From: a virus
Lineage: Duplodnaviria > Heunggongvirae > Uroviricota > Caudoviricetes
Virus record (IMG/VR): IMGVR_UViG_3300038393_003162
Coordinates: 20,407-84,406 of that record
Length of the DNA: 64,000 nucleotides
Strand: one strand, 5' to 3'
Both the position numbers and the translations under genes were made by a program. Positions within the stretch are counted from its first letter, which is position 1, and the number at the start of each line of letters is the position of its first letter. The notes below the pieces were generated by a model, which made no database searches, was not told the DNA's origin, and was given only the letters and a program-made list of their open reading frames with translations. Below are positions 20,279 to 41,518 of the stretch, piece after piece.

Positions 20279-20554
20279 TCAGTACGTCCCCATAATCACA
20301 GCAACAGCCGCCTTGTTCTGCCTCGGGTGGTCGTTCGGATCGATGAAGTACATGTCGAGCAGGTAAATCACCCCGTCTGACAAGAGGTTATAACCCCTTT
20401 TCTTGAACGCCAGCCTGGTCTCATAGCACCACGCCCTTATACTGTCCGGCGTCACCTTCCCCGTCAGCTTGACCGGAGGCAGCCCGTCCGGTATCCTAAT
20501 GTCCCTAAGCTTCCTCTCTTGCTGCGGCTCCTTCTGCGACCGTTCCTTTGCCAT
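20279..20554 (-). CDS. Hypothetical protein
   Basis: ORF; start MAKER after AGGAG. Confidence 0.6.
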   Translation of the reverse strand: MAKERSQKEPQQERKLRDIRIPDGLPPVKLTGKVTPDSIRAWCYETRLAFKKRGYNLLSDGVIYLLDMYFIDPNDHPRQNKAAVAVIMGTY

Positions 20555-21905: not shown

Positions 21906-21941
21906 GTGCTATAAACCTTGAGAATAATCAAGATTCTGCAC
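21906..21941 (-). CRISPR. Solo divergent copy of the array-1 repeat
   Basis: GTGCTATAAACCTTGAGAATAATCAAGATTCTGCAC, 27/36 identical to consensus; changes confined to the stem; 227 nt from the array. Confidence 0.8.
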
Positions 21942-22168: not shown

Positions 22169-22783
22169 GTGCTATGCCTATCGAGAATAATCAATAGGCT
22201 GCACTCTTGAGCAACCGCTTCAAAGGGTTCTTTGGGATGTGCTATGCCTATTGAGAATAATCAGTAGGCTGCACGCAATAACCCTATCAGGATCGTCGCC
22301 AAGAGACTTCGTGCTATGCCTATTGAGAATAATCAATAGGCTGCACCTGTTTCGAAGACGAGTTTGGTGGATGGGTCGCTTGGTGCTATGCCTATTGAGA
22401 ATAATCAGTAGGCTGCACCCCACCAGTAATGTTGGAGGCACCACCATTCAAAGTGTGCTATGCCTATCGAGAATAATCAATAGGCTGCACTAGATCAGGC
22501 GGTTCCATAGATCAGAGTTGATCTCGTGCTATGCCTATCGAGAATAATCAATAGGCTGCACCACCTTGAGGGCTTGGAGATCCTCAAACAGAGCCGTGTG
22601 CTATGCCTATCGAGAATAATCAATAGGCTGCACAGGCGTCCTTTGATCCTAAGTTAGCATGGGAATATGTGCTATGCCTATCGAGAATAATCAATAGGCT
22701 GCACCTGCTGCCGGGCTTATTGTGAGTATGTGAGTAGCGGGCTCCAAGTGCTATGCCTATCGAGAATAATCAATAGGCTGCAC
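22169..22783 (-). CRISPR. CRISPR array 1: 9 x 36-bp repeats, 8 spacers (34-36 nt, one 43 nt)
   Basis: Repeat (minus strand) GTGCAGCCTATTGATTATTCTCGATAGGCATAGCAC at plus starts 22169, 22239, 22311, 22383, 22455, 22526, 22598, 22669, 22748. Confidence 0.98.
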
Positions 22784-22925
22784 TGGGGTTTTCTAACCTA
22801 TTAACCGACAAAGGGTTGCGATTCTACTTTTCAAGCATCTCGTGATGTTGCCTGTTGGGATTTAAAGTATGCCTGTTTACCATGAGATATCATTGCCCTA
22901 AGTCGGTATTGTTTTTGAGTTTAAG
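22784..22925 (-). promoter_or_regulatory. Leader of CRISPR array 1
   Basis: AT-rich segment between the cas12 stop and the first repeat; shares TTTTCAAGCATCT and GCCyTAAGTC..TATT motifs with the array-2 leader. Confidence 0.7.
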
Positions 22926-25695
22926 CCGAATCAAGCATCTCTTGTGGGGTGATATTGCTGGAAGTTGGTGTTTGCCAGAGGGTTAGATGCGATTTATCGT
23001 CATTTGGCTGTTGTTGCTGGGAGGTCCATGATTCCTTAAGTTCCTTTCGCAAGAGTTGATGCTGTTTCCATGGCAACCACTCATCATAGTGTCTATAGAA
23101 CGGGCGTCTATTGGTTCCTTGTGCGTGGCTGGCGTATTCCTTGAGTTTCTTGGCTGTGACTTCCTCTAGTTCTCCTACGAGGTTTTTGCCGAGTTTGAGG
23201 ACGAAGGTGTTGTATCCGAGTCTGGTCATAGCGGCTTTGAATCGTTTGCCCTCTTGATCGGGGACATAGAGGGATCGCGGTTCGATGCCATCCTTGACGA
23301 CGGTTCTCATCCAGATCGAGTTGGCATCCTGATATCTGGTCCAGAATCTTCGTTGAAGGTTCTGTGCGGCATTGAGGTCTGAGTCGACCGTGGTCACATT
23401 GCCTTCCCTCTGGACGTAGAGGATTTCCTTCTCATTCTCGTCCCTGAATCCGTACTCACCGGTCTGGGCATCGATCTGTGAGGAATCCCTCGGGTCGATG
23501 AGTTGGAGAGCGATCCCGTGGGGCGTGAGGAAGTCCACGAGGTAATTCTTGATTTCCCTTGCCGACCAGACTTCGAGCAACTGGTTTTCCTGTTTGGTTC
23601 GTGCGAGCGAGAACTTGAAGTTTTCGAGGTCTTCGATGAGGACGACGTGTGCCTGTTGATAGAGTGCGTAGTGTGCGATAGCGGCGGCGATCTTCTTGAT
23701 TTGGTCCTTCTTGATGTTCCTGAGGGTTCTGAGATGTCTGGAGAAGTGCCTTGGGTCTCTCCGTAGTCCCGGCTGGAGTGGTTCTTGGTCTTTGTATCTC
23801 CATGACTTCATGAGGGAGATGTATTTTTTGTAGACCATGATATACTTGATTGAGTCGGCTGAGACGCCTGTATGCCTGTGGGTATAAGTTCTCAGGTTCC
23901 TGAAATGTCTGGCGATATTGCCGATTGTGCTGTTGAGTTCGTTGAGGAGGTCATAGGGTTGGCTCGTGGGATTGATTCCGGCGAGCTTGAATGCCTTGTC
24001 GTAAGGTTTGAGGTCTTCGTCTTGGTTTTTCTGTAGGTCTTTATAGAGGTAGATGAGTTTCTTAGCGGCGTAGATCTTGTCGTCGAGGTTCTTGATTTGG
24101 TCTACGAATTCTTGGGAGTGGATGGTCCCGATCTTGATTTCCTCGATCTTGGTGGCTTGCCCGAGGTTGGGTACTTGGTAATCGTCTTTTGTGGCTGTGT
24201 GATTGTCTTTGAGTTGATAGGTTGTGAGGGCGAGTGTCGGATTGATGTTGAGGTCGACGGAGATTGCCTTGAGACCTACCTTGATGTCTGGGAGATATTG
24301 GTCAGCTTTCTTGTCATTTGCGGCGGTGTTGAAGTAGGTGATGGTATTCTTAAGAGGCTTGAAGTCGAGGGCTTGGTTGCCTTTCTTGTCGGTCTTGTAG
24401 TTCTCATAGAGTGGGTCATTGAATTTGGTCTGGACATTGAGTGGGAGCGAGAGGTAGACTTGCCCGAGGTATCCGTTGGCGAAGTTGGTTGGATCGATGG
24501 TCCTGAGCAGTTGGTTATTGAATCTGAGATAGGGTTCTTTAAGGATGGCGGTCGTGGGAGTTTGCCTGAGGTTTCCGGTTTTGTATTGGAACTGGAAGTT
24601 CTTAGTTCCCTTGATCGGTTGGATTTCGAGGTCGATGAAGTATCTTGATGGCAGGAGTTCGAGGGTATGGGACTTGAGTTGGGTGATATTCCTATGGTCT
24701 AGAAGTTCGAGGGTTGCGTAGAGTTTGCTATTGGTTTGCTTGATGGAGAATCCGAGGTAATTTTCCCCGAAGTGAGCGTCTTGGGGGAGATTGTGCGTGT
24801 GGGGGGTTGGGACGCTGGCGTTTTGCTTTGCGTCTTCGTTGAGATATCTGACGGCTTCATCTCTTTCAGTGAAGAGGGCGATGAAGTCGATTTCCTGGAG
24901 GTTGAGCCAGAGGTCTTGATATTGGTCTTGAAGTAGGTTGTAGGGTGTTTGGTTGGGGGCTTGCCCTTTGATGAGTTTCTGCCTGGTTTTTTGCCATCGT
25001 GCGAGGAATTTGGCATTTGCCTTGAACTTGGGGTCTTGTTCGGCTTGCTGCTTCCATTCCTGGTAGAGATTCTCTTGGGTGGGGAATTGATTGGCGTGGT
25101 CGACGATCTTCTGTGTGTCTTCTTTTAGGGCTTGATACTCTTTCTGGGTATTTTCATCGTTGGCTCGCCAGTTGCGGAAGAGTGCGATTGCGGCGCAATA
25201 TGCGGACTTGTGTAACTTGAAGGGGAGTTGCTTGGTGTTATTGGTGTTAGTCAGTGGGAAGATATTTTCATCCCAGAGTTTTCTCAATGCCTTGAGTGGG
25301 GGCGAGGCGTTTTCTTTGCCGCCCGATTCGATGAGGCTGCCGTTTTCCTTGAATCTCCTTGCGAGCATTGCCTGGTAATAGAATGGATTTGGGTCTTTTT
25401 GGATACCATCGATGAGTTGGTCGAAGAGTGGGAATGCCTGGTCGGGGTCCATGTGCTTGGCGTAGTTGGTTCTCTTCTGGTCGAGTAGTTCTTGGGAGAC
25501 TTGCTCGCCTTTGGTGGTGGTATAAGGCTGGTTGTTAAGGGTCATGAAGAGGTCAAAGAGTTGTGCAACCAGATCATTGTGGCAGATGTGTGTCGCGGCG
25601 ATATCCTTCCGGACCTCGTCGGGGATGAATCGGAACCTGAGGTTGGTACTCTTGAGGCACGCGGGCTTGAGGCTGTTGTCTTTATCGTTTGCCAT
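22921..25695 (-). CDS. cas12: Type V CRISPR effector, compact Cas12b-clade (V-B/V-H-like), 924 aa
   Basis: RuvC-I GLKAISVDLN, RuvC-II VVLIEDL, RuvC-III DSDLNAAQNLQRRFW; also ENQLLEVWSAREI and SSQIDAQTG resembling Cas12b; adjacent to array 1. Confidence 0.92.
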   Translation of the reverse strand: MANDKDNSLKPACLKSTNLRFRFIPDEVRKDIAATHICHNDLVAQLFDLFMTLNNQPYTTTKGEQVSQELLDQKRTNYAKHMDPDQAFPLFDQLIDGIQKDPNPFYYQAMLARRFKENGSLIESGGKENASPPLKALRKLWDENIFPLTNTNNTKQLPFKLHKSAYCAAIALFRNWRANDENTQKEYQALKEDTQKIVDHANQFPTQENLYQEWKQQAEQDPKFKANAKFLARWQKTRQKLIKGQAPNQTPYNLLQDQYQDLWLNLQEIDFIALFTERDEAVRYLNEDAKQNASVPTPHTHNLPQDAHFGENYLGFSIKQTNSKLYATLELLDHRNITQLKSHTLELLPSRYFIDLEIQPIKGTKNFQFQYKTGNLRQTPTTAILKEPYLRFNNQLLRTIDPTNFANGYLGQVYLSLPLNVQTKFNDPLYENYKTDKKGNQALDFKPLKNTITYFNTAANDKKADQYLPDIKVGLKAISVDLNINPTLALTTYQLKDNHTATKDDYQVPNLGQATKIEEIKIGTIHSQEFVDQIKNLDDKIYAAKKLIYLYKDLQKNQDEDLKPYDKAFKLAGINPTSQPYDLLNELNSTIGNIARHFRNLRTYTHRHTGVSADSIKYIMVYKKYISLMKSWRYKDQEPLQPGLRRDPRHFSRHLRTLRNIKKDQIKKIAAAIAHYALYQQAHVVLIEDLENFKFSLARTKQENQLLEVWSAREIKNYLVDFLTPHGIALQLIDPRDSSQIDAQTGEYGFRDENEKEILYVQREGNVTTVDSDLNAAQNLQRRFWTRYQDANSIWMRTVVKDGIEPRSLYVPDQEGKRFKAAMTRLGYNTFVLKLGKNLVGELEEVTAKKLKEYASHAQGTNRRPFYRHYDEWLPWKQHQLLRKELKESWTSQQQQPNDDKSHLTLWQTPTSSNITPQEMLDSA

Positions 25696-25787
25696 GGTTG
25701 GTTGATTTCTGTTATGTGGTTAGTTTTGTGCGACTGATTATACGTTGTGTGCTGTAGACCTCAGGTATAATTGAGTCTTGCATGATT

Positions 25788-25829
25788 CATGACTTGGGGA
25801 GACATTTATTTCAGCCTCCCCAAGTCATG
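25788..25829. terminator. 14-bp perfect inverted repeat upstream of cas12 (terminator or operator)
   Basis: CATGACTTGGGGAG / CTCCCCAAGTCATG. Confidence 0.5.
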
Positions 25830-25950
25830 GTTTAATTCTAGCATAAGTCTTATTTGGTGTCTAGGTCAATTGTTGTTGTTTTAGGGTCTAAAACTCGATC
25901 AGAGTCTCTTGTCGGCGATCTCGATAGTGTTCGCCGACGAGATTGCGGCT

Positions 25951-26157
25951 TTAGTTGTACAGGATGTATAGGTCTTCGAGCGTCTGCACTCCCACCTGGT
26001 AGAGCATCTTATAGATTGAGTATTCGAGGAGTTCGTATCCTTCGCTAGGGAGATAGTCCTTGGTGCTATGGAGTATGCCTTGGTATTGGTCGACGATTGC
26101 CTTGAATGCTGGGATGTTCTTGAGTTGTTCTAATTCATGTTCTTGTGCTTCTGTCAC
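25951..26157 (-). CDS. Small hypothetical protein
   Basis: 68-aa ORF with AAGGA RBS. Confidence 0.55.
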   Translation of the reverse strand: MTEAQEHELEQLKNIPAFKAIVDQYQGILHSTKDYLPSEGYELLEYSIYKMLYQVGVQTLEDLYILYN

Positions 26158-26402
26158 AGGACATATCCTTCCGTAAGTGACTTATTGATTTTTCTTTGGA
26201 TTTCCTGACAGTCGTCCTTCACCTGTTTGGTCATGTGGCTGACGACGGCTTGTTCGTAGGCGTTGAACGCGGCATCGATTAGGGCTTCATCGTCTTTCCT
26301 CCATAAACGCCCTCTACGAGACTTCTATCATGGGTACGGGGGATTCGTCGTTTTACCTGTCCGGATCGCGTCACGGGGCTTCTGGGAGCCTTCCTGGGCA
26401 TC

Positions 26403-26954
26403 CTAGCCTGGGGCATTGGGTTCGGAGATCATTTCGTTTTTCCTTCTGAAGTTTTGGATATAGGATTTGAGGTTTTGGAGTTGGGTTTGTTGTTGTTCAT
26501 TTTGTTGTTTATTTGGGATGAGTAAGTCGTATGAATCCTGTGCGAGTTTTATCATTATTTTCATGTTTGTTGTGTCATTGGCTGTGAATTGTAATTGGTG
26601 CAGTTGGACTTTGGTTCTATAGTGGATTTGGTTGTCGTTCTTGGTTTCCCAGATATAGAGTCTAGGTTTTAGGGTTGAGGAGGTGGTAATGACGAAGTGG
26701 AGAGAGTGGTCTGTGTGATTTGGATGTTTGGTCTGATAGTGTTTCGCGGGTTCCCAAGAGGTCTTGATATTTTCGTTGATTTTTTTGAGGGAGTCATTGA
26801 TGTGTTCTTTTCTGTCGATTTCCACGAGGTGTTTATTTTTCATGGTATAGACGGCGTCGATTGTGGAGATATAGGTTGTATTTTCTTGTTGATTCTGCTT
26901 GATGAAGGCGAGGTCCCAGCGGGCGAGATTCTTGGGGATAGTGGTATACATCAA
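26403..26954 (-). CDS. C-terminal-motif family protein 1 (close paralog of 26951-27493)
   Basis: HYQTKHPNHTDHSLHF; ends QTQLQNLKSYIQNFRRK. Confidence 0.75.
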   Translation of the reverse strand: MMYTTIPKNLARWDLAFIKQNQQENTTYISTIDAVYTMKNKHLVEIDRKEHINDSLKKINENIKTSWEPAKHYQTKHPNHTDHSLHFVITTSSTLKPRLYIWETKNDNQIHYRTKVQLHQLQFTANDTTNMKIMIKLAQDSYDLLIPNKQQNEQQQTQLQNLKSYIQNFRRKNEMISEPNAPG

Positions 26955-27493
26955 TATTTCCTTCTGAAGTCATGGACCTGGGATTTGAGGTTTTGGAGTT
27001 GGGTTTGTTGTTTGAGGTCTTGTGGATTCTGGGTGATTTCGGTCTGTTGTGTTTCTTTGGTCTTGCAGGATTGTGCGGTTCTTCTTTGGACATCTTTGAG
27101 TGCGGCTGGGACATTATCGGAGTAGGTATAGGTTCTGAATGGGCGTTTGAGGTCTTTGTAGGTGAAGTGTTGCGCGTGGTTGTATTGGAACGGGACATCG
27201 AGTACGTAGAGTTTGAGTGTATGGCTGTGTGGTGTGGCGAAGAAGTGGAGTGAGTGGTCTGGGTGATTTGGGTTTGTGGTCTGATAGTGCCTGATAGTTT
27301 CCCAGAGGAGTGTGCTTTCTATTTTTTTGTGGTCGATTTGGTCGAAGAGGGTGCAGGCGTAGCTGCCCTTGTCGGCTTTTTCGAGGTGATGGTGTTGGAG
27401 TGTGAAGATGATGGAGTCGTAGGTGATGTAGGTAATTTCTTCGATTTGGATTTTGTAGGCATAATCCCAATTTTGGATTTCGGGTACATTCAT
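26951..27493 (-). CDS. C-terminal-motif family protein 2
   Basis: HYQTTNPNHPDHSLHF; ends QTQLQNLKSQVHDFRRKY. Confidence 0.75.
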   Translation of the reverse strand: MNVPEIQNWDYAYKIQIEEITYITYDSIIFTLQHHHLEKADKGSYACTLFDQIDHKKIESTLLWETIRHYQTTNPNHPDHSLHFFATPHSHTLKLYVLDVPFQYNHAQHFTYKDLKRPFRTYTYSDNVPAALKDVQRRTAQSCKTKETQQTEITQNPQDLKQQTQLQNLKSQVHDFRRKY

Positions 27494-27538
27494 TCGATTA
27501 TTTTCTCCGGTAGCGTGTATCATGTATTTTGTTCCGAC

Positions 27539-28063
27539 TCATTCGATTTGCATCGAGTTGCTTTGCCTGAAGGTTTGGATTGCCTTGAGGGTTTCTTGTT
27601 TGTATTGGTCTTGATTGTGCTTATGTTTATGCTTGGTTGGTTCGAGGGAATCGAAGGCTTGCTTGAATGCGTAGTAGGCGTTGGGGATCGAGAATCTTTC
27701 GTAGGTTCCGATGACCTGGGTGGCGGCGAGGTTGTTTGGGTCGAATCGTCTTGAGATGAGTGTGGGGTTATCCCGCTGGGGCTTGTAGAGGAGATAGGCG
27801 AGGATTTGCCCGTTCTCGATGGTGGGGTGCGGGAGTTCGATTGCCTGGATACTGTCGATGTTATTGGGCGACGGCTTGTAATAGTTGACGAGGTCGTTAT
27901 AGGCTTGGTGCCTGTCGTAACTGGCGTGGAGGGTTTTGATTTGGTCGATATTGTTCATAAAGGGATTGACGGTGTAGAGGTATTTGTCGGTGATGATGAA
28001 GGTGCTGCCGGGGGTGACGATGAAATAGGCTTGGGTCCAGTTGTAGAGTGGTGGGACGGGCAT
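27539..28063 (-). CDS. C-terminal-motif family protein 3
   Basis: Start MPVPPLYNW; ends YKQETLKAIQTFRQ. Confidence 0.75.
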   Translation of the reverse strand: MPVPPLYNWTQAYFIVTPGSTFIITDKYLYTVNPFMNNIDQIKTLHASYDRHQAYNDLVNYYKPSPNNIDSIQAIELPHPTIENGQILAYLLYKPQRDNPTLISRRFDPNNLAATQVIGTYERFSIPNAYYAFKQAFDSLEPTKHKHKHNQDQYKQETLKAIQTFRQSNSMQIE

Positions 28064-28073
28064 TGTGTTGGTC

Positions 28074-28568
28074 CTAGTAATTGGTTCGGAAGTGGTTGAT
28101 TGCTTTCTTGAGGTCTTGTTTGCGTTGGATCTGGGTGTTTGTGGTGTCATCTTGCGGCGGCTTACCTATGAGGCTGTCGTATATCTTCTGGGCGGTGGCG
28201 ACGACTTGGTCCTTTTGGAGTTTGATCTGGATATGGGCTTGTTGTTGGTCGGTCTCGTAGGGTGAGAAGTGATAGAGTGCGAAGTAGCTGGAGATATTGA
28301 TGTCGGGGATGGCGACGAAGAGTCTCGGCTTCGAGGCGAATAGCCTGTGATATTTTGCCGGTTTCCAGTCGAGCTTACCTTCTTTCAGGTCGATTTCCTG
28401 CTTGATTCGAAGGTACGAGAAGTTATAGACTGTGTTTTGGGTGATGGCACCCGAGAACCGGTCGATGCAGAATACTCTGGTGGTGGTGACGATGTATCGT
28501 TTATCGGGGGTGTAAGCGGTCTGGGCATCGATCCATTGGTCTAGCTCAGGAAAATTTTTGCGTGGCAT
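28074..28568 (-). CDS. C-terminal-motif family protein 4
   Basis: Ends RKQDLKKAINHFRTNY. Confidence 0.75.
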   Translation of the reverse strand: MPRKNFPELDQWIDAQTAYTPDKRYIVTTTRVFCIDRFSGAITQNTVYNFSYLRIKQEIDLKEGKLDWKPAKYHRLFASKPRLFVAIPDINISSYFALYHFSPYETDQQQAHIQIKLQKDQVVATAQKIYDSLIGKPPQDDTTNTQIQRKQDLKKAINHFRTNY

Positions 28569-28620
28569 TTTCGTCGATCCTGTTAGTTGACGAGTCCGCG
28601 TGGGTTTAGTTTATTTGGTC

Positions 28621-29130
28621 TCAGGGGTTTAGGGTCCGGAAATTGTCGATAATATTCCTGAGGGATTTCCTGTTGGTTTCCTTGAATTGGGCGACTTCCT
28701 CTGGCTCTTGGGCTGGGGGATAGAATTGGTCGAAGAATTCCTGGAGGAGTCTATGGTCGCGAGAGAGTGATCCAGCGGCGAATTCGAACCGGTTGGTTGG
28801 TCCTAGGTGGTTGGGTTTACTCCTCGTGAAGACGCGGACGACGTTCGTGTAGGTTTGCTCATTGTAAGTGAGGAGGAGTTGGAGGTAGTTCTCCGGTTCG
28901 TCGGGGTGAGGGAACCCCAAGTGGCGGAAGTAGAATGTCTTGGTGTTCACGGTTGCGTCCCTGATCGCCTGGAACTTCTGGGTCCTGGATTTGTGGGGGA
29001 CTGCCGTGAACACCTGGTCTTTGTTATTAGTGAGTATATATGCATATTCTTCGGTGACGAAATAGGTGTAAAGATCGGTTTGGATGGCTTTGGCGATGAG
29101 CCACTGGCTGAAGGGCGGTATGACGGGCAT
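28621..29130 (-). CDS. C-terminal-motif family protein 5
   Basis: Ends NRKSLRNIIDNFRTLNP. Confidence 0.75.
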   Translation of the reverse strand: MPVIPPFSQWLIAKAIQTDLYTYFVTEEYAYILTNNKDQVFTAVPHKSRTQKFQAIRDATVNTKTFYFRHLGFPHPDEPENYLQLLLTYNEQTYTNVVRVFTRSKPNHLGPTNRFEFAAGSLSRDHRLLQEFFDQFYPPAQEPEEVAQFKETNRKSLRNIIDNFRTLNP

Positions 29131-29139
29131 TTTTAGTCC

Positions 29140-29625
29140 TTAAAAATTGGCTTCCCGGAAGTGTTTTGCTGCGCGGATGACATCCTGCCGGAACTGTCGT
29201 TGTTGGTCGGTGTTCATTTTAACATTTATGGGTTTTTTGTCAAGGAATCTCCGGAGGATCTCGTTAGCTTTGGGGATGATTTCGGGTCCTTTGAGGCTGG
29301 CGACGATTTTGGCATAAACATCAGGCTTATTCGGGTCGAAGTGGTAGAGGAAGGTTCCCAGGAACGTGGTGGTTGGAATGAGTATGAAATGGAGTTGGTC
29401 GTTTTGGTCATTGATGTAGGCTTCGGTCCAGAGGAGGTTTTGGTGGACGGAGGTCTCGATGGCTTGGATCGTATTCAGCACGTGGTAGATGGGCTGGTCG
29501 TAGATGATCCGATTGGTATTGCGGTTGGTCTGGATGAGTCGATTGTCGGTGACGACGTACCTTGTGTCGATGGTATGAGCGGTTTTGGCTTTGGTCCATT
29601 GGTCGAGTCCGGAAATCTCTGGCAT
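29140..29625 (-). CDS. C-terminal-motif family protein 6
   Basis: Ends FRQDVIRAAKHFREANF. Confidence 0.75.
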   Translation of the reverse strand: MPEISGLDQWTKAKTAHTIDTRYVVTDNRLIQTNRNTNRIIYDQPIYHVLNTIQAIETSVHQNLLWTEAYINDQNDQLHFILIPTTTFLGTFLYHFDPNKPDVYAKIVASLKGPEIIPKANEILRRFLDKKPINVKMNTDQQRQFRQDVIRAAKHFREANF

Positions 29626-29636
29626 CTTTTGGTCCT

Positions 29637-30164
29637 TTAGAAATTGGCTCTTCGGAAGTCGGCGATTGCCTGCTGGATGGTTTTGCGATAGACCAGCAAG
29701 GATTCCTGGTTCTGGATTTCCTTGAGTGATTGCTTGTGTTTGTATATTTCATTGGCTTTGATGGCGGCGACGGTGAGGGTCGCGTGGTTTTCGATCTGGA
29801 CTTGCTTGGTGACGGGATCGATGAGGATGAGTTGCACTTGGTCGGTCGTCACGACGACATATTCCGGGAACTCTGCGTCTTTCTCTGACGGTTTTGCGGA
29901 GCTACCGCAGTCGGCGTAGGCGACGTTGAGGTCGACCGGCAGAGTTTCGTAGGCTTTGATGATCTCCTCGTGGTGGGAGAATCTGCGGGGTTCCTCGGAA
30001 GCGGTCATGCTGTTCGGGTCGATCTTGAGTATCTTCCAAGGGTTCATGGGGTGGTCATTGCTGAAGTAGGTGATGAGGTAGGGGGTACCGGGTGTCGCAT
30101 GTTTCACCGGGACGAACACCTTAATCATGGTCCAGCCGATATCATAGATCGATCGTTTGGGCAT
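29637..30164 (-). CDS. C-terminal-motif family protein 7
   Basis: Start MPKRSIYDIGW; ends YRKTIQQAIADFRRANF. Confidence 0.75.
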   Translation of the reverse strand: MPKRSIYDIGWTMIKVFVPVKHATPGTPYLITYFSNDHPMNPWKILKIDPNSMTASEEPRRFSHHEEIIKAYETLPVDLNVAYADCGSSAKPSEKDAEFPEYVVVTTDQVQLILIDPVTKQVQIENHATLTVAAIKANEIYKHKQSLKEIQNQESLLVYRKTIQQAIADFRRANF

Positions 30165-30174
30165 TGTATGGGTC

Positions 30175-30681
30175 CTAATAATTAATTCTGAAGTTATGAA
30201 TAGCTTGTTGGACGGTATGCTTGTTCTGGAGGAGTCGTCGTTGATTGGTCTCTTGGGGTTTGTCCGATAGTCCGGATACCAGCCGTTCGGCTGTGACGAA
30301 TTGGAGTGCGTTCCGGTTGAGGCTGGAATAGTACAGGATGTTCGTTTCGTTCTTGCGATGACGGACATAGGTCATGTGGTATTTGAGCCAAGGGTTTGTC
30401 TGGGTTCGCTCATGGATGAAGAAATAGTGTTGCTCCAGGGTATGCCAGTCGATGTGGCATGAGACCAGGGCATCTTTCTTCCACGAGAGGTTCTCTGCGG
30501 GTTCTCCGAGTATAGTCGTGACCCAAGAAACCGCTTGATCGCGGGTGGCATTCGATCGCGAACGGAATAAATTACACTGCTGGTTGATGACATAGGAAAT
30601 GGGCATATTTCCTTGCAGCAGGAAGGCGAATAGACCTCTAGGGTCATCGAGGACTTCGGCATTCATCCATTGGAGGGGCAT
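30175..30681 (-). CDS. C-terminal-motif family protein 8
   Basis: Start MPLQW; ends NKHTVQQAIHNFRINY. Confidence 0.75.
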   Translation of the reverse strand: MPLQWMNAEVLDDPRGLFAFLLQGNMPISYVINQQCNLFRSRSNATRDQAVSWVTTILGEPAENLSWKKDALVSCHIDWHTLEQHYFFIHERTQTNPWLKYHMTYVRHRKNETNILYYSSLNRNALQFVTAERLVSGLSDKPQETNQRRLLQNKHTVQQAIHNFRINY

Positions 30682-30692
30682 TGTTTGGTCCT

Positions 30693-31268
30693 TTAGAAAC
30701 TGGTCCTGAAATTCTCGATGGCATTCTTGAGGTCTTGTTTGTTCTGGATGAGTTTTTCGGGGTCCGGGTCTGGTTGTTTCGGGACTGATTTCGGGCGCGG
30801 CTTGGGCATGTAGCTTTTCTCCTGTGCCGTGAAGGTGAGTTCCTCGGCGAGTGTGTGAGCGGCGGTCATACTTGGCAGGTACCATTTGTGGATCTGCCTT
30901 GAGTTCTTGCTGCTGGTGTAGACATAGAGCAAGCAATACGGGTTGGCTTCAAACCGTGCTTTCGAAATCTCGCTGGGGAAGGTGTCGGGCGGTGTCCGGC
31001 GAAAGGCATAGAACTGGACATTTTCGAGCGTATTCTCGGTCATGTCGATGGCATGGTTGGCATCATCGGACCACTTGAGTTCGGCGGCAGTGGTCTCGAA
31101 TTTCTCGGACACGTAGCTTTCGAGTTGATTCGGCGTCGCGTGGACCTTGGCATCCACGTCGGTCGTGATCGTGTTGATGGTATAAGTATGCGAAGAGTGT
31201 TGGAAGCAAAGGACGTTTTGCTTCGACGGTTTTTCAAACACTCTTATCGGGGACCATTTTAATGGCAT
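30693..31268 (-). CDS. C-terminal-motif family protein 9
   Basis: Start MPLKW; ends NKQDLKNAIENFRTSF. Confidence 0.75.
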   Translation of the reverse strand: MPLKWSPIRVFEKPSKQNVLCFQHSSHTYTINTITTDVDAKVHATPNQLESYVSEKFETTAAELKWSDDANHAIDMTENTLENVQFYAFRRTPPDTFPSEISKARFEANPYCLLYVYTSSKNSRQIHKWYLPSMTAAHTLAEELTFTAQEKSYMPKPRPKSVPKQPDPDPEKLIQNKQDLKNAIENFRTSF

Positions 31269-31289
31269 CTTGTGTTCCTTTGATTTGAT

Positions 31290-32411
31290 TCACTTGATAA
31301 GGTCGCGGAAATTCTGGATCGCCTTGAGGGTGGTTTCCTTGTTCTGGACGAGTTGCTGTTGGTCCGGTTCCCGAGGCTCGTCATCCAGTCGCTTCTTTCG
31401 CCTATACGAATACGAAAAATTCTCAATATACGAGGAATATTTCCTGGTCGAAAACTTCCCGAAAGTGGAAAGGTGGTTGAAGTTGAAAGTATAACTTTGG
31501 TTTTGGTTGAATGTGTCGGCGTCGTGCTTGTCGGCAGCGGTCTTGGCATCCATCAGGAGATTGAATACTTGCGTGGTATTATGGGTTGCCTGGGTGTCTT
31601 CATGTCCGAGCGTGTAGAGGGTGTAAAGATTTTTCTTGTCAGCCGAGCAAACTTCGATGAAATAAAAGATATTCTTCGACAAGTCTGTGTTTCTGGTACA
31701 CACGACCGAGTGTTTCGTGTATCCGCCTGGGAGCTTTGCCTTGGCATGAGCCTCGATAGCGGCGATGTAATTAAAGTCAAGACACTCGACCTTGACAGTG
31801 CAGTCGTTGGGGGTAAAGAAGAAAGCCTTGAGGATCGGGTCATCACCCGACTTCGAAGTCGCGATGAAGCAATGCGGTTCGTCGGGGTTATTGGGCTTAA
31901 GGAGGAATCCCGATCGCCAGACGAGGAGATTCTCGGGATTCTTCTTGGTCGGGGCTTGGTCTTGGATGACTTCCGTGATTTCGGTTTGGTCTGGCATCGT
32001 TTCTTGCCCTTCGTTGGTCGATGCGTTGTTAAGGATGTTGTTGGCTGTTTTGATGACATCATCCTTGGAGTCGCAAATCACTTGGGTCGGAATGTTCTTG
32101 GAGTTAGCATCAAAATGGACGAGAAGGAATTCCTCCGTGGGAGTTCGTTTGTAGAAGAAAATATGCCCCTTACTTTCGGAGAATGCGACTGCATACTTCC
32201 ACTGGAGAGTGCGACCGGCTCTCGCCTCGGCGTCGTCGGTCGCGGTGGAAATGAGCATGAACGTCTGGCTATAATGATGGTGTTCCTGTTTGCTGAGGAT
32301 ATGGAGGCGAGGGGTCCAAGTCGAGGTGTTGATGAAATAATAATGGGAATCGGTCTCTGCGACCTTACAGTAGTCCCACGCGAGAACTTGTCCTTGGTCT
32401 GGCATAGTCAT
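31290..32411 (-). CDS. C-terminal-motif family protein 10 (double length)
   Basis: 373 aa; ends NKETTLKAIQNFRDLIK. Confidence 0.75.
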   Translation of the reverse strand: MTMPDQGQVLAWDYCKVAETDSHYYFINTSTWTPRLHILSKQEHHHYSQTFMLISTATDDAEARAGRTLQWKYAVAFSESKGHIFFYKRTPTEEFLLVHFDANSKNIPTQVICDSKDDVIKTANNILNNASTNEGQETMPDQTEITEVIQDQAPTKKNPENLLVWRSGFLLKPNNPDEPHCFIATSKSGDDPILKAFFFTPNDCTVKVECLDFNYIAAIEAHAKAKLPGGYTKHSVVCTRNTDLSKNIFYFIEVCSADKKNLYTLYTLGHEDTQATHNTTQVFNLLMDAKTAADKHDADTFNQNQSYTFNFNHLSTFGKFSTRKYSSYIENFSYSYRRKKRLDDEPREPDQQQLVQNKETTLKAIQNFRDLIK

Positions 32412-32426
32412 GTCCTTATGGTTTGG

Positions 32427-33146
32427 TCAGAATTCATTTTCGTTTTGGAAGTCCCACGGATCGATTTCCCAATCATCGTCTTCGACCACATCGACATTTA
32501 CAGGGGTCGGGGCAGGCGGGGGTGCAGGCTCAGAGTCATCATCCTCATCATCATCACCCATCTGGAAAAGTTTATCCAAGAATGTGTGGTTGACGATGCT
32601 GGGATCGTCGATTGGGATGGCGGCAGTTTCCTCGTCGATGATCCCGCCGAGCTTTTCGACGAGGTTGCAGAGCTTGACGGCAACGCACTCGATCGTGTCG
32701 AAGGTCCCGAAGGTAGTGAAGTTCTTCGCCTTCCGGAGTTGCCCGAGGAATTCGCTGGTGTCCTGGGGGGTGCTGCACCGATGCTCCAATTCTTTTCGCA
32801 TCATCTCCAGCGTCTCGACCAGTTTCTCGACATCGATTTGCTTCGTCTCGGTCACTGCTTCACCCTGCTGGGGGATGTAGCCTTCTTCGTAGGTGGCTCC
32901 GAGGGACATGCCTGGTTCGACCAGATGGTTATGGACCAATTGGGCGACTTCTTTGGCGTCCTCTGGAGACTTGAATGGTCCCCGAGTCCCGTCACCCTTG
33001 CCGTTATCCAGGACGACGGAGAAGTTCCAGCCCCCGCTCGGATTTTTCTCGACCCTGTACCGGGCATTGGGGTTATCCTGTGCGTGCGCGGTAAAAACTT
33101 TCCCGTATCCCAGCTTGTTCCATTTGAGTTTCTGCGGCTCTGGCAT
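32427..33146 (-). CDS. Hypothetical protein, EE(C/G)YI subfamily, acidic tail
   Basis: MPEPQKLKW...YEEGYI followed by a coiled coil. Confidence 0.7.
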   Translation of the reverse strand: MPEPQKLKWNKLGYGKVFTAHAQDNPNARYRVEKNPSGGWNFSVVLDNGKGDGTRGPFKSPEDAKEVAQLVHNHLVEPGMSLGATYEEGYIPQQGEAVTETKQIDVEKLVETLEMMRKELEHRCSTPQDTSEFLGQLRKAKNFTTFGTFDTIECVAVKLCNLVEKLGGIIDEETAAIPIDDPSIVNHTFLDKLFQMGDDDEDDDSEPAPPPAPTPVNVDVVEDDDWEIDPWDFQNENEF

Positions 33147-33242
33147 CTCGATCTCCTTCTTGGTCAGCCTCTTGACAGGTCTTCAATATACGATTTCGCT
33201 TAGTGTGGTCCGATGTTGACTTCGTTTCATCCCATTTGTTGG

Positions 33243-34004
33243 TCACATGTAGCCTTGGATTACCGAAAGATAATTGCTGAGTTCGTAAAATTCGGTCATG
33301 AGGTTCGGCTCGATCTCCTTAAGATCGAGTGCCACTTGTTCGTAACTATCGCGATCGGCTCTGAGCGACTTGATTTGCTCGATGAGGTCTCGCTGGCATC
33401 GGATGAATCGTTCGAGCGGGGATTCGTCTCCCTTGGCGACTTCAGTTCCAGCTTCTTCTTCGTAGTTGGCGATGTAGCATTCCCCGTATTCCTTGGTTTC
33501 CTTGGTCTTCTTAGGTTTGGGTTTGGTGAGAATCTGATAGTTGCACTTATCAGCCATGATCTTGACATCCGCCATGGAATCATAAGTCAACGGCAATTTC
33601 CAATATCCCCCTTCCGGCTTATAAATTACGAGCGTTGCCTTATTGTCTGTTACATAAGTATGGACTATGAAGAAATATCCTGCCTGGTTCTGGGCTTCCG
33701 ACCGAAGGTTTGTAATCGCGTTCCATTCTAGTTTGCCCACCGACTTGATGTGTTCTTGGTCTATTTTCTCAGCTAAAAGGCGTGCTTCTTTTGGGTTTTC
33801 GCAAAGACGGACCCGCCCTACCCCGTCGTCTCCGGTGTATACAAGTCGGGTGATCAGATTGTTAGGACCGGAACTGACCTCGACAGTGTATTCCTTCTCG
33901 GTGACCGTGCTGGTGCCGTAATGCGTGGTATATTTCCCGCCTTGAGAAACCTTCCATTCGAATGCGACTAAAAACATGAGGTCATCCTTTCGTTTTGGTT
34001 TCAA
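33243..34004 (-). CDS. Hypothetical protein, EE(C/G)YI subfamily
   Basis: YGECYI...ESPL followed by a coiled coil; start uncertain. Confidence 0.65.
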   Translation of the reverse strand: MKPKRKDDLMFLVAFEWKVSQGGKYTTHYGTSTVTEKEYTVEVSSGPNNLITRLVYTGDDGVGRVRLCENPKEARLLAEKIDQEHIKSVGKLEWNAITNLRSEAQNQAGYFFIVHTYVTDNKATLVIYKPEGGYWKLPLTYDSMADVKIMADKCNYQILTKPKPKKTKETKEYGECYIANYEEEAGTEVAKGDESPLERFIRCQRDLIEQIKSLRADRDSYEQVALDLKEIEPNLMTEFYELSNYLSVIQGYM

Positions 34005-34107
34005 AACATCATATCAAAAAACACGCTCCAGGTCAAGCCAGGAGCGTCTCTTGGGTCGGGATGGTGGAACAGGACGTTTTCTTCGGGTCGCTGGTTCTGG
34101 GGGCATT

Positions 34108-35067
34108 CTAGAAGGATTCCCGGAAGGCAGCGATGGCTTTGAGGGTCGATTGTTTGTTTCGATTGAGTAATTCCTGGGAGACCGGCTCTGGGCGTCGTTC
34201 CTCGGTCGGGAGATGCTTTAGATTTTCTTTGGCTTGGGCGTCTTCCTTGGCTTCGTGGACCGACTTAAAATGACTGACGACCGGCTTCGCGCTGTCGTTG
34301 GCGAACATCGTTTGCCGGTATTTGTCCAGGAAAGGATAGATGAGCCAGAAATGGGTCTTCATCGGAGTGACAGAGATTGCGTTGATCATCATGTGAAGTG
34401 GTCGCCAGGACAAATAATCATGACCAACGAACTTCTCGAATGCTTTCTTGGCACCTTCTTCCGTGACATAGGGCGTGACACTGACCTTGGACTTTCCATC
34501 GCGGAAAATGTAGAGAAGACTGATGTTGTTGCTGGGGATGAGGGCGGCATAAGCGAGTTGGTTTTCGTTATGGACGTATGACGATGTGTAGATGCCTTCG
34601 AACCACTTGGGTGAAGTGGTCGTTTTCGATTTGGGGAGAGGCTTGAGGGATTTGAAGTTGTTGGCTGCGGTCCTTGCTTTGGGCAGACTAGTGTATTCTC
34701 CTCGGTCTCGGGGCGAATCGTAATTGGCGTTGAGGTGGACGAGCTTCCACAGGTGGTCGTTGGCTGTGATCACGAAACAATCGAACGCTTCTTTGTCGTC
34801 GGCGTCTTCCTTGACCGTTTTGGCATATGATCCCGATACCCAATTGAGAGAGATGACTTTGGCGGTCGAGAGGGCGTGGATGGTCGCTCCAAGTTGATTC
34901 TGATGAATGGTGACGACCGGCTTCGAGTATGCCTTGGGGATGACCGCGAGAATCCGGTAATTATGGGTGGTTTCTTCGCCATCCGCGACCGCCTTGACAT
35001 AATAGTTGGTCGCATCCTGGGCGATGCGTGCTGGCTTCCAGTCGAGGGCTGTATCTGCGTCTGGCAT
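34108..35067 (-). CDS. C-terminal-motif family protein 11 (double length)
   Basis: Start MPDADTALDW; ends NKQSTLKAIAAFRESF. Confidence 0.75.
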   Translation of the reverse strand: MPDADTALDWKPARIAQDATNYYVKAVADGEETTHNYRILAVIPKAYSKPVVTIHQNQLGATIHALSTAKVISLNWVSGSYAKTVKEDADDKEAFDCFVITANDHLWKLVHLNANYDSPRDRGEYTSLPKARTAANNFKSLKPLPKSKTTTSPKWFEGIYTSSYVHNENQLAYAALIPSNNISLLYIFRDGKSKVSVTPYVTEEGAKKAFEKFVGHDYLSWRPLHMMINAISVTPMKTHFWLIYPFLDKYRQTMFANDSAKPVVSHFKSVHEAKEDAQAKENLKHLPTEERRPEPVSQELLNRNKQSTLKAIAAFRESF

Positions 35068-35139
35068 GGTTCGCATCCTTTGGGGCATTAATAACGCAAA
35101 ACTTCATGTTATTAATGCGGATTAGGGTGTCGGTCGGCG

Positions 35140-35742
35140 TTACCAATTGTCTGTGATGATGATCGCTTCTTCTTCGGCGATTTCCGGTGGCGGCGAGGGC
35201 TGCTGATTGATTTTGTGGAATGTCAGAGAAAGGTTATAGAGGATATCGTCGAGGACGATGATTTCCTCCAAGATATCGCACGGGGCATTTGGGTCATTGG
35301 TTCGGAGCATATTTTTGGCTAGTTGTTCGTTCTTCTTTGGCGATCCGCCTACTTTCTTCAATTCGGCAGCGAGGTCTTTGATGGTTTGTGCGAGTCGGGC
35401 GGCTTCCTGGAGGGGTGTTTCTTCGGCGACATCCGTCGTGATATAGCATTCTTCGAAAGGCATGTTGTCCGGCTCCTTCTTTTGGTCACGTCGCATTGTA
35501 TTGAAATATGACAAGTCCCACCGATTGGCATATCTTACGGCTTCGTTCCAGTCGGCATGGAATGTCGCCTGTTCTCCGGAGGCTTTGAGGAATGTCGTAA
35601 GCTGATAATTTTGAGCCATGCCAAGATATTTAATTTTGAAATTTGTAGATTCGTTTCTTTTACTTTGAGAGGTCCATGTGGAGAAGTCATCCACTGGATG
35701 ATGTGCTTTCCATGTGAGATTCAGGTCCTTTTGTTCCGGCAT
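35140..35742 (-). CDS. Hypothetical protein, EE(C/G)YI subfamily
   Basis: MPEQKDLNLTW...FEECYI...ETPL followed by a coiled coil. Confidence 0.7.
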   Translation of the reverse strand: MPEQKDLNLTWKAHHPVDDFSTWTSQSKRNESTNFKIKYLGMAQNYQLTTFLKASGEQATFHADWNEAVRYANRWDLSYFNTMRRDQKKEPDNMPFEECYITTDVAEETPLQEAARLAQTIKDLAAELKKVGGSPKKNEQLAKNMLRTNDPNAPCDILEEIIVLDDILYNLSLTFHKINQQPSPPPEIAEEEAIIITDNW

Positions 35743-35862
35743 TGCTTCTTCGCCTTTTTTGATCGGCTAAAAACTGATTGGATGTCAATTACCTATTGTA
35801 GCACAGGTCTAAATTTAGGTCAATAGGTCATTAATAAGTAATCGAAGTTTAATTTATTCTAG

Positions 35863-36570
35863 GTGATCGCTATTCAGTATTTCGGGGGCAAGGGAAAGGT
35901 CTGTCGGGAATTGGCTGGTTACATCAATTCGCGGCTTGGGGATGGTCAGGCGTATTGGGAGCCATTCTGCGGTGCGTGCTGGGTCATGAGCAATGTATGT
36001 GGGTCGATGCGTATCGCGAGCGACCTGCATCCGGAGTTGATTGCGATGTGGCGGGCGTTACAGACGGGCTGGGAGCCGCCTGCTGTGGTCACAGAGTCGG
36101 AGTATCAATTGATACGGGCGGGGACGGACATGGCATTGCGTGGCTTCGTGGGTTTCGGCTGTAGTAACAGTGGTAAATGGTTTGGCGGATACGCTAGGAA
36201 CAAGACTGGTCGTAATTACGCATCGAACGCCAGGAATTCGTTGAAGAAGAAGATGATGGGCTTAGGGGATGTGCGGTTCGAGTGCGGGGGTTACAATGAG
36301 GTCGAGGTGCCGAGCGGGTCATTGATCTACTGCGATCCTCCTTATCGGGGGACGGTGGGGTATTCGGTGGGTCGGTTCGACCATGATCGGTTCTGGGAAT
36401 GGGTGCGGAAGAGGTCGGTTGAGAATACGGTCTTGGTCTCGGAGTATAGTGCTCCTGAGGATTTCACTTGTGTATGGGAGATTGAGACCAAGACCGATAT
36501 CAAGGATAGGACGGGGGAGAAGTCGAGGCGGGTTGAGCAGTTGTTTGAACACTCTTCGAGTGTGGAATGA
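35863..36570 (+). CDS. Dam-like (D12 class) N6-adenine DNA methyltransferase
   Basis: YFGGK, YWEPFCGA, IYCDPPY, VSEY. Confidence 0.9.
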   Translation: MIAIQYFGGKGKVCRELAGYINSRLGDGQAYWEPFCGACWVMSNVCGSMRIASDLHPELIAMWRALQTGWEPPAVVTESEYQLIRAGTDMALRGFVGFGCSNSGKWFGGYARNKTGRNYASNARNSLKKKMMGLGDVRFECGGYNEVEVPSGSLIYCDPPYRGTVGYSVGRFDHDRFWEWVRKRSVENTVLVSEYSAPEDFTCVWEIETKTDIKDRTGEKSRRVEQLFEHSSSVE

Positions 36571-37482
36571 GAGATAGTCTTAGATGGAGAGGGACGCGGC
36601 GCAAAGTGTTAAACGCCTCTAGAGCGTGGAATGAGGATCACCAGAGGCTTTTCAACTCCGATGGCGGTCCGTGTTAAACGCCTCTAGGGCGTGGAGTGAG
36701 GATCACCCTCTTGCCAACACACGATTCCTCCCGGCTTGGTGTGCTAAACGCCTCTAAGGCGTGGAGTGAGGGTTACTTTCATTTGAAATCGAACTCAACA
36801 GTGTTAAACGCCTTTAGACCGTGGAATGAAAGTCATGCGTGCATAATTCGCCGGACGTCCTGGTTTTCGTCCTGTGTCGAACGCCTCTAGGGCGTGGAGT
36901 GAGGATCAGGTTAACTTATTGGTTGACGTCCTCAACTGACCGCTTGTGTTAAACGCCTCTGAGACGTGGAGTGAAGATCACCACGGCGCGTCCGATGTCG
37001 TGTCGCGCGGACCGGATGAGTGTTAAACACCTCTAGGGCGTGGAATGAGGATCACTTCTTCGTCTAGCAATATCCTAATAATTTGGTATGTGTTAAACAC
37101 CTCTAGGGCGTGGAATGAGGATCACTCCACTATTTCAAGGGCATCTACTCGAAGATGCATGTGTTAAACGCCTCTAGGGCGTGGAATGAGGATCACCGTG
37201 ATTGAGCGTACACGTCGAAGGTATGTTCTCGGTGTTAAACGCCTCTAGGGCGTGGAATGAGGATCACCATCCAAGGACCACCTCCCTGATCTGCGCCACC
37301 GGGCGTGTTAAACGCCTCTAGGGCGTGGAATGAGGATCACCTCGTGCGTGATGCCATACATCCGCCGCACCTCGTGTGTTAAACGCCTCTAGGGCGTGGA
37401 ATGAGGATCACCAGATACGCTCCCACAGCCAAGCTGTATTAGGGTCGTGTTAAACGCCTCTAGGGCGTGGAATGAGGATCAC
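36542..37482 (-). CRISPR. CRISPR array 2 (orphan): 13 x 36-bp repeats plus one degenerate terminal repeat
   Basis: Plus-strand consensus GTGTTAAACGCCTCTAGGGCGTGGAATGAGGATCAC at 36606, 36671, 36741, 36801, 36874, 36946, 37020, 37090, 37161, 37232, 37305, 37376, 37447; degenerates leftward; no adjacent cas genes. Confidence 0.97.
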
Positions 37483-37770
37483 TGCCTCATCTTAAGCTCT
37501 TGATGTCCAACCACTTAGACACTTGGTTTTCAAGCATCTTGCTCATCGGCATCAACAAGGCAATAAGATGAAGCATTGGCGTGAGCCATCATAGCCAGAA
37601 CGTCTTGTCAAAGAACAACTTACGAAGAATCATGCACCTGGGATTCGGACTTTCAGCCTTAAGTCCTTATTTTGAAAGAGATTTAAGACAATTTGGCAAT
37701 CTTACTCTCTGATCCTGGAAAGGTACTTGATTTCCCAGCATTTAGTATACCAAGTCGAACGACTTTTGCC
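37483..37770 (-). promoter_or_regulatory. Leader of CRISPR array 2
   Basis: Non-coding region next to the perfect repeats; motifs shared with the array-1 leader. Confidence 0.7.
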
Positions 37771-37777
37771 AACTAAA

Positions 37778-40744: not shown

Positions 40745-40831
40745 GGCAATGTTCCTTGTTCTGGTCGCAAGAACGACCTGTATTTCGTGGAATGTCAGTT
40801 CTAATCAACAGTCGAACAGATGGTGGTGATG

Positions 40832-41518
40832 TTATTGTTTAGGAGCAAGTTCAACCTGAACGAGATCGCCATTCAGCCACCATTCTTTGGTGCCGTTTTC
40901 GCGTTCTATGGCTGGACCATCTACTCGATGGTATCTGTCATTTAGGCTCCACGCTTTATAGCCGTCGGCGTGTACGACGGCTGGTCCATCTTCGCGATGA
41001 CGCCTGCCATTCAACCACCATTCTTTGCTGCCATCGGCATGCTCAATGGCAGGTCCATCTTCGCGATGCTTTTTGCCATCCTGATACCAATATTTGGCTC
41101 CGCTGGGACATTCGATGGCGGGTCCGTCTGCTCGATGAAACTCATCAGCTTGATACCATTCTTTGATACCATCAGCCCGTTCGATGGCTGGACCGTCTTC
41201 TCGGTGGAGCTTGCCGTTTTGATACCATCTCCTCGTACCATCTGGCTCGATGATTGCCGGTCCATCGTCACGGTGAAGCTCACCATCCTTCAGCCACTTC
41301 ATCTTGCCCTTGAGGGTCTTGATGTAGATGATCTGTTGGATCATATCGATGACCTGGATCTCGCCGACTCCCTTGAGAGTCATCAATGGCGTTGAGAGCA
41401 AGGGAGCCATGGGAACCACCGAGGCACCAGCAATCGCCACAACCGGAGTGGTCGCGACTGCACCGCCCGCGATAGTCGCCTTCAGCATCTCCCGACGATT
41501 GAGATTGGAATCAGTCAT
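40832..41518 (-). CDS. HREDGPA-repeat protein with twin-arginine signal
   Basis: MTDSNLNRREMLKATIAGGAVA; six HRxDGPA repeats. Confidence 0.85.
   Translation of the reverse strand: MTDSNLNRREMLKATIAGGAVATTPVVAIAGASVVPMAPLLSTPLMTLKGVGEIQVIDMIQQIIYIKTLKGKMKWLKDGELHRDDGPAIIEPDGTRRWYQNGKLHREDGPAIERADGIKEWYQADEFHRADGPAIECPSGAKYWYQDGKKHREDGPAIEHADGSKEWWLNGRRHREDGPAVVHADGYKAWSLNDRYHRVDGPAIERENGTKEWWLNGDLVQVELAPKQ

Follow-up and report, generated by a model that had tools for sequence, protein, structure and literature searches.

Acquisition of CRISPR spacers in trans is already known. Arrays of type IV-A3 systems are fed by the I-E Cas1-Cas2 of their host (Benz et al., bioRxiv 2023.06.23.546257), in Flavobacterium columnare a type VI-B array is fed by the II-C Cas1 (PMC8092290), and adaptation-less systems are known on jumbo phages (PMC11656645). 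In type I-F, Cas1-Cas2 is brought into position by bent DNA and distal inverted repeats, and the leader directs integration into foreign repeats that carry a 5'-GT, with an efficiency that depends on repeat length (bioRxiv 2023.05.26.542337). In type I-D, three leader motifs raise acquisition without integration host factor (IHF) (PMC6607411, PMC10212523); an archaeal leader paper (PMC13748974) is cited for context only. Here we analyze the leaders of two CRISPR arrays of a soil jumbo phage, contained in a 64,000-nucleotide (nt) stretch of DNA (the window; positions 20,407 to 84,406 of IMG/VR record IMGVR_UViG_3300038393_003162, Caudoviricetes). Both arrays carry the three-site leader pattern of the Myxococcus-type I-B subtype (MxI-B, or I-MYXAN, whose marker cas1_MYXAN is a Cas4-Cas1 fusion) and are likely extended in trans by the Cas4-Cas1 fusion and Cas2 of the host, a reading to which we give a probability of roughly 0.75 on the sequence comparisons below. 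This pairing of partner subtype and effector was not found in print. The elements concerned, in window coordinates with leader offsets counted from the right-hand repeat, are:

22169..22783, minus strand: array 1, nine repeats of 36 nt and eight spacers, a type V array with its leader on the right
22921..25695, minus strand: cas12, 924 amino acids (aa), RuvC-like domain, PF22126 above cut-off
22827..22840, plus strand: leader 1 site 1, at +44, containing the shared 13-mer
22927..22940, plus strand: leader 1 site 2, at +144, a direct copy within cas12 codons 919-923
23022..23035, minus strand: leader 1 site 3, at +239, an inverted copy within cas12 codons 887-892
36606..37482, minus strand: array 2, 13 repeats of 36 nt and 12 spacers, degenerate at its left end and without an adjoining cas gene
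37526..37539, plus strand: leader 2 site 1, at +44
37626..37639, plus strand: leader 2 site 2, at +144, a direct copy
37721..37734, minus strand: leader 2 site 3, at +239, an inverted copy

Array 1 lies downstream of the 924-aa Cas12 gene, on the minus strand, and an adenine methylase gene abuts the distal end of array 2. The leaders were placed on the right because the repeats degenerate towards the left, a trend plainer in array 2 than in array 1; the leader-end repeats are homogeneous. An earlier note on this DNA had described both repeats as 36 nt long, running GTG...CAC, with spacers of mostly 34-38 nt, and this is what we find: seven of the eight spacers of array 1 measure 34-36 nt (the remaining one 43 nt) and 10/12 in array 2 measure 34-38 nt, with spacers of 24 and 29 nt at the distal end. 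The two repeats agree at 17 of 36 positions, and repeat 1 folds into a 9-bp hairpin plus an end stem.

The same note had reported a 13-mer standing at the same distance from both arrays. In fact, TTTTCAAGCATCT occurs at 22828-22840 and 37527-37539, each time at +45 to +57, and nowhere else on either strand of the 253,022-nt virus record, even with one mismatch allowed; for two 200-nt leaders, the chance expectation of a 13-mer shared at the same offset is about 4e-6. The 13-mer turns out to be part of the first of three sites. Site 1 is 14 nt long and starts at +44 (the 13-mer within it at +45; core CAAGCACCT), a direct copy follows at +144 and an inverted copy at +239, with identical offsets in both leaders and thus spacings of 100 nt between sites 1 and 2 and of 95 nt between sites 2 and 3. 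In leader 1, sites 2 and 3 occupy cas12 codons that lie where the alignment to solved relatives stops and beyond it.

Could two AT-rich flanks simply resemble each other by chance? This would account for a second block that the earlier note had also found in both leaders:

22895..22925, plus strand: second block, with its partner at 37656-37687

The block is present at these positions, but out of register: its offsets, +112 in leader 1 and +174 in leader 2, differ by 62 nt. Once the three main sites are masked, 8.8% of 1000 shuffles (P 0.088) and 45% of 1000 genome segments (0.45) align with at least the same score, so the block is probably a chance match and was not counted as signal. For the three sites themselves, which have identical offsets, are unique in the record and include a 13-mer match expected about 4e-6 times, an origin by chance is hardly credible.

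The same layout stands in front of MxI-B arrays in bacterial genomes. A scan for such arrays (43 of 64 parts) gave at least 120 loci, with four distinct genomes carrying MxI-B-like arrays among them, and cas1_MYXAN was searched in 401, 251 and 251 genomes from the phyla of three of these four, with 6, 6 and 19 matches over the cut-off. One such locus, annotated in full, reads cas6, cas3, cas8a1/Cmx1, cas7, cas5, cas4-cas1. From 36 loci we retained 27 leaders, after removal of three loci without an array, three duplicates, one near-duplicate, one contig end and one locus of another subtype; six are from Planctomycetota, four from Myxococcota, 16 from Cyanobacteria and one from Acidobacteriota, as judged by the titles of the genome records, the last included by its repeat alone. 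A motif found de novo in these host leaders only, TTTTTCAAGCACCT, sits at +43 to +46 in 26/27. Scored with the site-1 matrix at +44, the phage leaders reach 17.0 and 16.5, whereas none of 35 control flanks from arrays of other subtypes (assigned by repeat to I-C, I-G, V-B, I-B and others) exceeds 7.4. In host leaders, too, site 1 is followed by a direct and then by an inverted copy: when sites are picked independently in wide windows, site 3 follows site 2 by 93-97 nt in 24 of the 27, and the distances between sites 1 and 2 cluster at 87-89, 99-103, 109-113 and 122 nt. The best-fitting period is 11.5-12 nt, so these steps correspond only roughly to one helical turn. With a three-site matrix built from 77 host sites (hosts scored leave-one-out), the phage leaders sum to 39.6 and 39.7, the hosts to 12.4-54.3 (median 30.2) and 32 control flanks to at most 9.5. 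When all 2 x 252,728 anchors of the phage record are scored in this way, nothing but the two array ends reaches 39.5; a score of 27.2 is found at one unrelated place. These comparisons establish the three-site layout and its specificity for the MxI-B subtype. The motif is thus present in host leaders of one class 1 subtype, as the earlier note had predicted, and the partner can be named more narrowly as the MxI-B Cas4-Cas1 fusion, which occurs in Planctomycetota, Myxococcota and Cyanobacteria. As for the class 1 host integrase that the note suggested may be borrowed, the motif at the same offset in 26/27 MxI-B leaders points to it, the borrowing itself being an inference from this likeness.

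The repeats agree with the leaders to different degrees. Host repeats are 36 nt long in 25/27, start with GTG in 16/27 and end in AGCAC in 22/27, and host spacers measure 34-38 nt in 351 of 363 cases. Repeat 2 resembles these repeats (23/36 positions at best) and has the 36-nt length and the ACGCC/GGCRT hairpin by which MxI-B (B-type) arrays are recognized. Repeat 1 matches its best host repeat at 15/36 positions only, yet has the same length and the same ends (GTG...AGCAC). A scan for the exact type of repeat 2 gave 0 loci, and no host with the exact repeat was found in the genome scans; a looser scan gave 120 loci, nearly all of them chance, and was discarded.

The earlier note also expected the motif in related phages, and it recurs at the type V array of a second, unrelated phage. 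A leader-blind scan of viral contigs for three consecutive 36-nt GTGCT...GCAC repeats, a design biased to host-like repeat ends, returned nine loci: six near-identical contigs of one phage lineage, one host-type array and two non-arrays. This lineage encodes a 938-aa Cas12h (E 8e-191 to Cas12h1), 24% identical to the window Cas12 over 337 aa, in a gene between those for a DNA polymerase and a helicase; a 27-repeat array with a different 36-nt repeat follows. Its leader has sites at 45/144/238 and a three-site sum of 27.1, and no anchor among 2 x 50,925 positions in the rest of the contig reaches 27. In this phage, site 2 is identical in sequence and offset to that of leader 2, and sites 2 and 3 fall within the 3' codons of cas12, as in leader 1. 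None of four records of this phage, 6-13% complete, contains cas1. A scan of viral contigs with the motif as part of the search pattern was set aside: of its 12 loci, one is a host-type array and 11 are not arrays.

How does this compare with the systems described? MxI-B host leaders have the same core word, offset, direct and inverted partners, 93-97-nt gap, 36-nt repeats and 34-38-nt spacers. Unlike them, the leaders described here belong to a phage whose record shows no adaptation genes, and one of them overlaps the cas12 frame and precedes a type V repeat. IV-A3 systems are likewise mobile and adaptation-less with a host-like leader, and in IV-A3 the protospacer-adjacent motif (PAM) matches as well; there, however, both partners are class 1, their repeats are similar and the mechanism has been shown, whereas the phage would pair a class 2 effector and an unlike repeat with a Cas4-fused integrase. 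The VI-B/II-C pair is alike in cross-type acquisition into a different 36-nt repeat but is chromosomal and class 2 to class 2, and its leaders share only A/T tracts, where the phage leaders share discrete phased sites. The likeness to I-F and I-D would lie in several distal leader motifs, inverted repeats included, that steer integration, with the repeat mattering little beyond its ends and length; sequences and spacings are different, and I-F uses IHF. The earlier note had referred to IHF sites, but these leaders give them no support: in hosts, matches to the IHF consensus show no positional enrichment (13 matches at >=8/9 scattered over 11 bins), and in the phage they lie at differing places in leaders 1 and 2, site 2 itself excepted. 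Finally, a Cas4-Cas1 fusion also serves the arrays of those type V loci, V-B among them, that encode a cas4g/cas1g fusion themselves, but it does so in cis and with an I-G-type word, GCGAGC near +44, that scores at most 7.4 on the MxI-B matrix. Throughout the literature compared, to which Santiago-Frangos 2021 and the original Cas12o1 paper do not belong, we found no description of the MxI-B leader motif or of its presence at Cas12h- or Cas12o-like arrays.

Planctomycete leaders of subtypes I-C, I-G and V-B (L303, L304, L322-L339) carry a sister word, GCGAGC or GCGAAC, at about +44. Judging by the shared offset, these words and that of MxI-B possibly belong to one leader grammar with subtype-specific letters. 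One planctomycete genome (L302:5849-10966) has a 693-aa type V effector, its own cas4g/cas1g gene and, downstream, a 96-aa open reading frame (ORF); a short array of 37-nt repeats lies between effector and cas1.

By analogy with type I-F, we envision that a host architectural protein would bend the leader DNA and that the sites would dock the integrase at the first repeat, of which nothing but the 36-nt length and the GT ends would be required. ATG-type PAMs would be selected by host Cas4 and later read by the phage Cas12. CRISPR RNAs (crRNAs) from array 1 would load the phage Cas12; those from array 2 would be cut by host Cas6 and loaded into the host class 1 complex.

The integrase might instead be encoded by the phage itself. 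Searches of the 253-kb record, whose completeness is estimated at 43% (57% of the phage is unsequenced), gave 0 matches for Cas1, Cas4, Cas6 (MYXAN), Cas7 (DevR) and IHF/HU. From the operon that defines MxI-B (cas6, cas3, cas8a1/Cmx1, cas7, cas5, cas4-1, cas2), cas1, cas4, cas6 and cas7 are thus without a match, and array 2 is an orphan array, not a CRISPR-Cas system; the earlier note's description of both arrays as cas1-less holds for this 43% of the phage. The sites could serve an MxI-B-type integrase in the unsequenced part, given the incomplete record, the even shorter Cas12h records (6-13%) and the full systems that some jumbo phages carry (PMC11656645). We regard this as unlikely. The 253 kb that span both arrays hold no cas1 or cas4, 0/4 Cas12h records have cas1, Casdelta loci too are reported without cas1/2/4 (PMC12721324), and cas1_MYXAN modules usually adjoin their array, since 28 of 31 loci have one within +/-1.5 kb.

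The sites might also act on expression rather than integration, by binding a transcription regulator or by forming a leader-RNA stem that controls the array. Leader 2 has the following match just beyond site 3:

37744..37772, minus strand: sigma-70-like promoter match, 10/12 with an extended -10, facing array 2; a consensus match only

Site 3 of leader 2 would thus lie just inside the promoter. Once transcribed, site 3 is the complement of both other sites, and the predicted fold of leader-2 RNA joins it to site 2 (11 expected pairs). The same pairing amounts to 0.9 pairs in leader 1 and 0 in the Cas12h leader, where site 3 partly pairs with site 1. Within a leader, moreover, likeness is highest between sites 1 and 2, which cannot pair (P 0.0015; sites 2-3, P 0.059), and site 1 keeps a constant distance from the repeat end in different phyla, with spacing steps of 10-13 nt, as expected of double-stranded DNA geometry. 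We therefore think that expression control is a very improbable role. The earlier note's own alternative, a promoter element, fares no better: a -35 element was rejected because no sigma-70-like match overlaps the 13-mer, and a general phage promoter because it has only two copies; a 62-copy intergenic motif of this phage is absent from both leaders. Rfam gave 0 matches.

A third possibility is that the two leaders are relics of a single capture of a host-type leader, which was duplicated and has since fallen out of use. Outside the sites, leaders 1 and 2 match at 82/210 positions (39%) in exact register and at 40-62 when shifted, which is compatible with common descent, and no array expansion was seen among the matches listed for the metagenome runs examined. 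However, common descent is not needed for a 39% match, because host leader pairs of equal spacing give 27-42% (one close pair 81%). Relics would hardly keep their sites while the remainder drifted to 39%, or show homogeneous leader-end repeats with distal decay, and the pattern recurs in the unrelated Cas12h phage. We give this explanation as little weight as expression control, and acquisition through the host MxI-B module is what we carry forward.

Adaptation is unexplained in print for several genome-editing Cas12 families. In the window Cas12, acidic residues D481, E688 and D773 are conserved across 30 homologues, the first two invariant and D773 nearly so. In a PDB search the window Cas12 matches Cas12X2 (E 4e-44), CasJ19 (E 5e-27) and Cas12b (3e-17), with no match to Cas12h1 at 1e-3, and its identity to the best 21 relatives is 24-34%; by sequence it is closer to CasJ19/Cas12X than to Cas12h or Cas12b. 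CasJ19 is presumably Cas12o1, given their common length of 908 aa; Cas12o1 has a 36-nt repeat and an ATG PAM (PMC13717751). We assign no subtype letter to the window Cas12, because V-O denotes a predicted inactive subtype in the 2025 classification (PMC12669027). An assignment to Casdelta was rejected: no fetched homologue starts like Casdelta-1, -2 or -3. Hidden Markov model searches of 401 and 151 genomes returned only 6 and 2 weak matches in the RuvC region, and of two that were annotated one is Cas12b.

Like the window Cas12, Cas12o1/CasJ19/Cas12X, Cas12h and Casdelta measure about 900 aa and go with a 36-nt GTG...GCAC repeat; the Casdelta supplement gives GTGCT-starting repeats of 36, 36 and 37 nt (PMC12721324). 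In myxobacterial B-type arrays the leading PAM is ATG, at 36.84% in IMG/VR (PMC11237760, sections 7 and 9), B-type arrays being those of MxI-B and III-B, with a common repeat (PMC11237760). The PAM of Cas12h1 is RTR/DHR (PMC11830025) and that of Casdelta-1 RYR, and the authors of the latter report suggest that Casdelta loci, which are without cas1/2/4, rely on coexisting systems (PMC12721324). We tentatively propose, at somewhat less than even odds, that Cas12o/Cas12X, Cas12h and Casdelta, as compact, cas1-less, ATG-PAM systems, are phage systems built around the MxI-B adaptation module. The host Cas4-Cas1/Cas2 would dictate the 36-nt GTG...GCAC repeats and the purine-rich PAMs, and with the three-site leader in the 3' end of cas12, effector and docking site would travel as a unit.

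Several points weigh against acquisition through the host module. The incomplete record leaves room for a phage-encoded cas1, and no published function was found for the leader sites, even in hosts. Cyanobacteria contribute 16 of the 27 host leaders. Repeat 2 ends in TTTAACAC, which agrees in 6/8 letters with the published B-type terminus TTGAGCAC (PMC11237760, section 7). Generality rests on one other phage lineage, that of Cas12h, whose site 1 is weak (2.4 with the site-1-only matrix, 11.1 with a non-cyanobacterial matrix), and no locus of a close relative of the window Cas12 was confirmed in viral contigs, metagenome contigs or GenBank phages. Among the matches listed for the metagenome runs, none has a new leader-proximal spacer in array 1. 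The sole spacer match (22419-22454) is imperfect (4 mismatches over 40 nt), and the letters on its PAM side are CTT instead of ATG; it comes from contigs in 5 of 7 metagenome runs examined and may not be a true target. This spacer reads in frame as a Gly/Thr/Asn-rich peptide. Protospacers were found neither in the phage's own record, nor in phages, plasmids or 96 and 181 Planctomycetota-group genomes; an 85% match in 96 Myxococcota-group genomes was single and weak and was not used. None of 1059 host spacers matches the phage.

If acquisition does run through the host module, several genome-editing Cas12 families would gain a concrete source of spacers, and their unusual purine-rich PAMs and common repeat ends could be explained as host constraints. 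One borrowed integrase would feed two routes in one phage, its own Cas12 and the host class 1 complex. The three-site grammar is also usable for finding MxI-B leaders, orienting arrays and narrowing down the hosts of phages that carry arrays of this kind.

Two further copies of the repeats stand outside the arrays. The first is the following:

21906..21941, minus strand: detached degenerate copy of repeat 1, 227 nt beyond array 1, with 9 mismatches and the hairpin kept

The sequence after it has no convincing target within the record. The second, a solitary 29-nt copy of repeat 2 at record position 107365, outside the window (L123:4279-4360), keeps the hairpin and the 3' end and lacks the first 7 nt. 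A copy of the 62-copy intergenic motif stands 13 nt upstream of it, and a stretch that resembles a spacer and contains a short hairpin comes next; by its layout, this repeat copy is a candidate solitary repeat unit, or RNA anti-CRISPR, against the same host subtype (PMC10651486). At the distal end of array 2 (window position 36666), one metagenome contig has 25 different letters ahead of the repeat at 36671, which may represent a variant spacer.

The record carries phage-type replication and nucleotide genes and a sigma-factor-like gene, and near-identical DNA is found in soil and rhizosphere metagenome runs; a FolD comparison gave no informative pointer to the bacterial host. Between cas12 and array 2 (window 26403-35742) lie about 14 co-oriented ORFs, many with a similar C-terminal helix-like tail (DNA repeat families D12, D15, D17 and D19); 14 long ORFs were tested, with no Pfam family above cut-off. 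Beyond array 2 (38915-41518), two proteins consist of 23-residue repeats of the LHREDGPA type with weak DUF6745/MORN_2 matches, and one of them has a signal resembling that for twin-arginine translocation. The 62-copy motif has the minus-strand core AACCGGATAC.CCCT, with all copies on one strand (window 555-20620; record positions about 7,600-41,000) and 56 of them within a 33-kb run of small genes. In the copies inspected it lies about 40-65 nt upstream of a ribosome site and start codon, and in a record that encodes a sigma-factor-like protein it is probably a phage promoter or operator.

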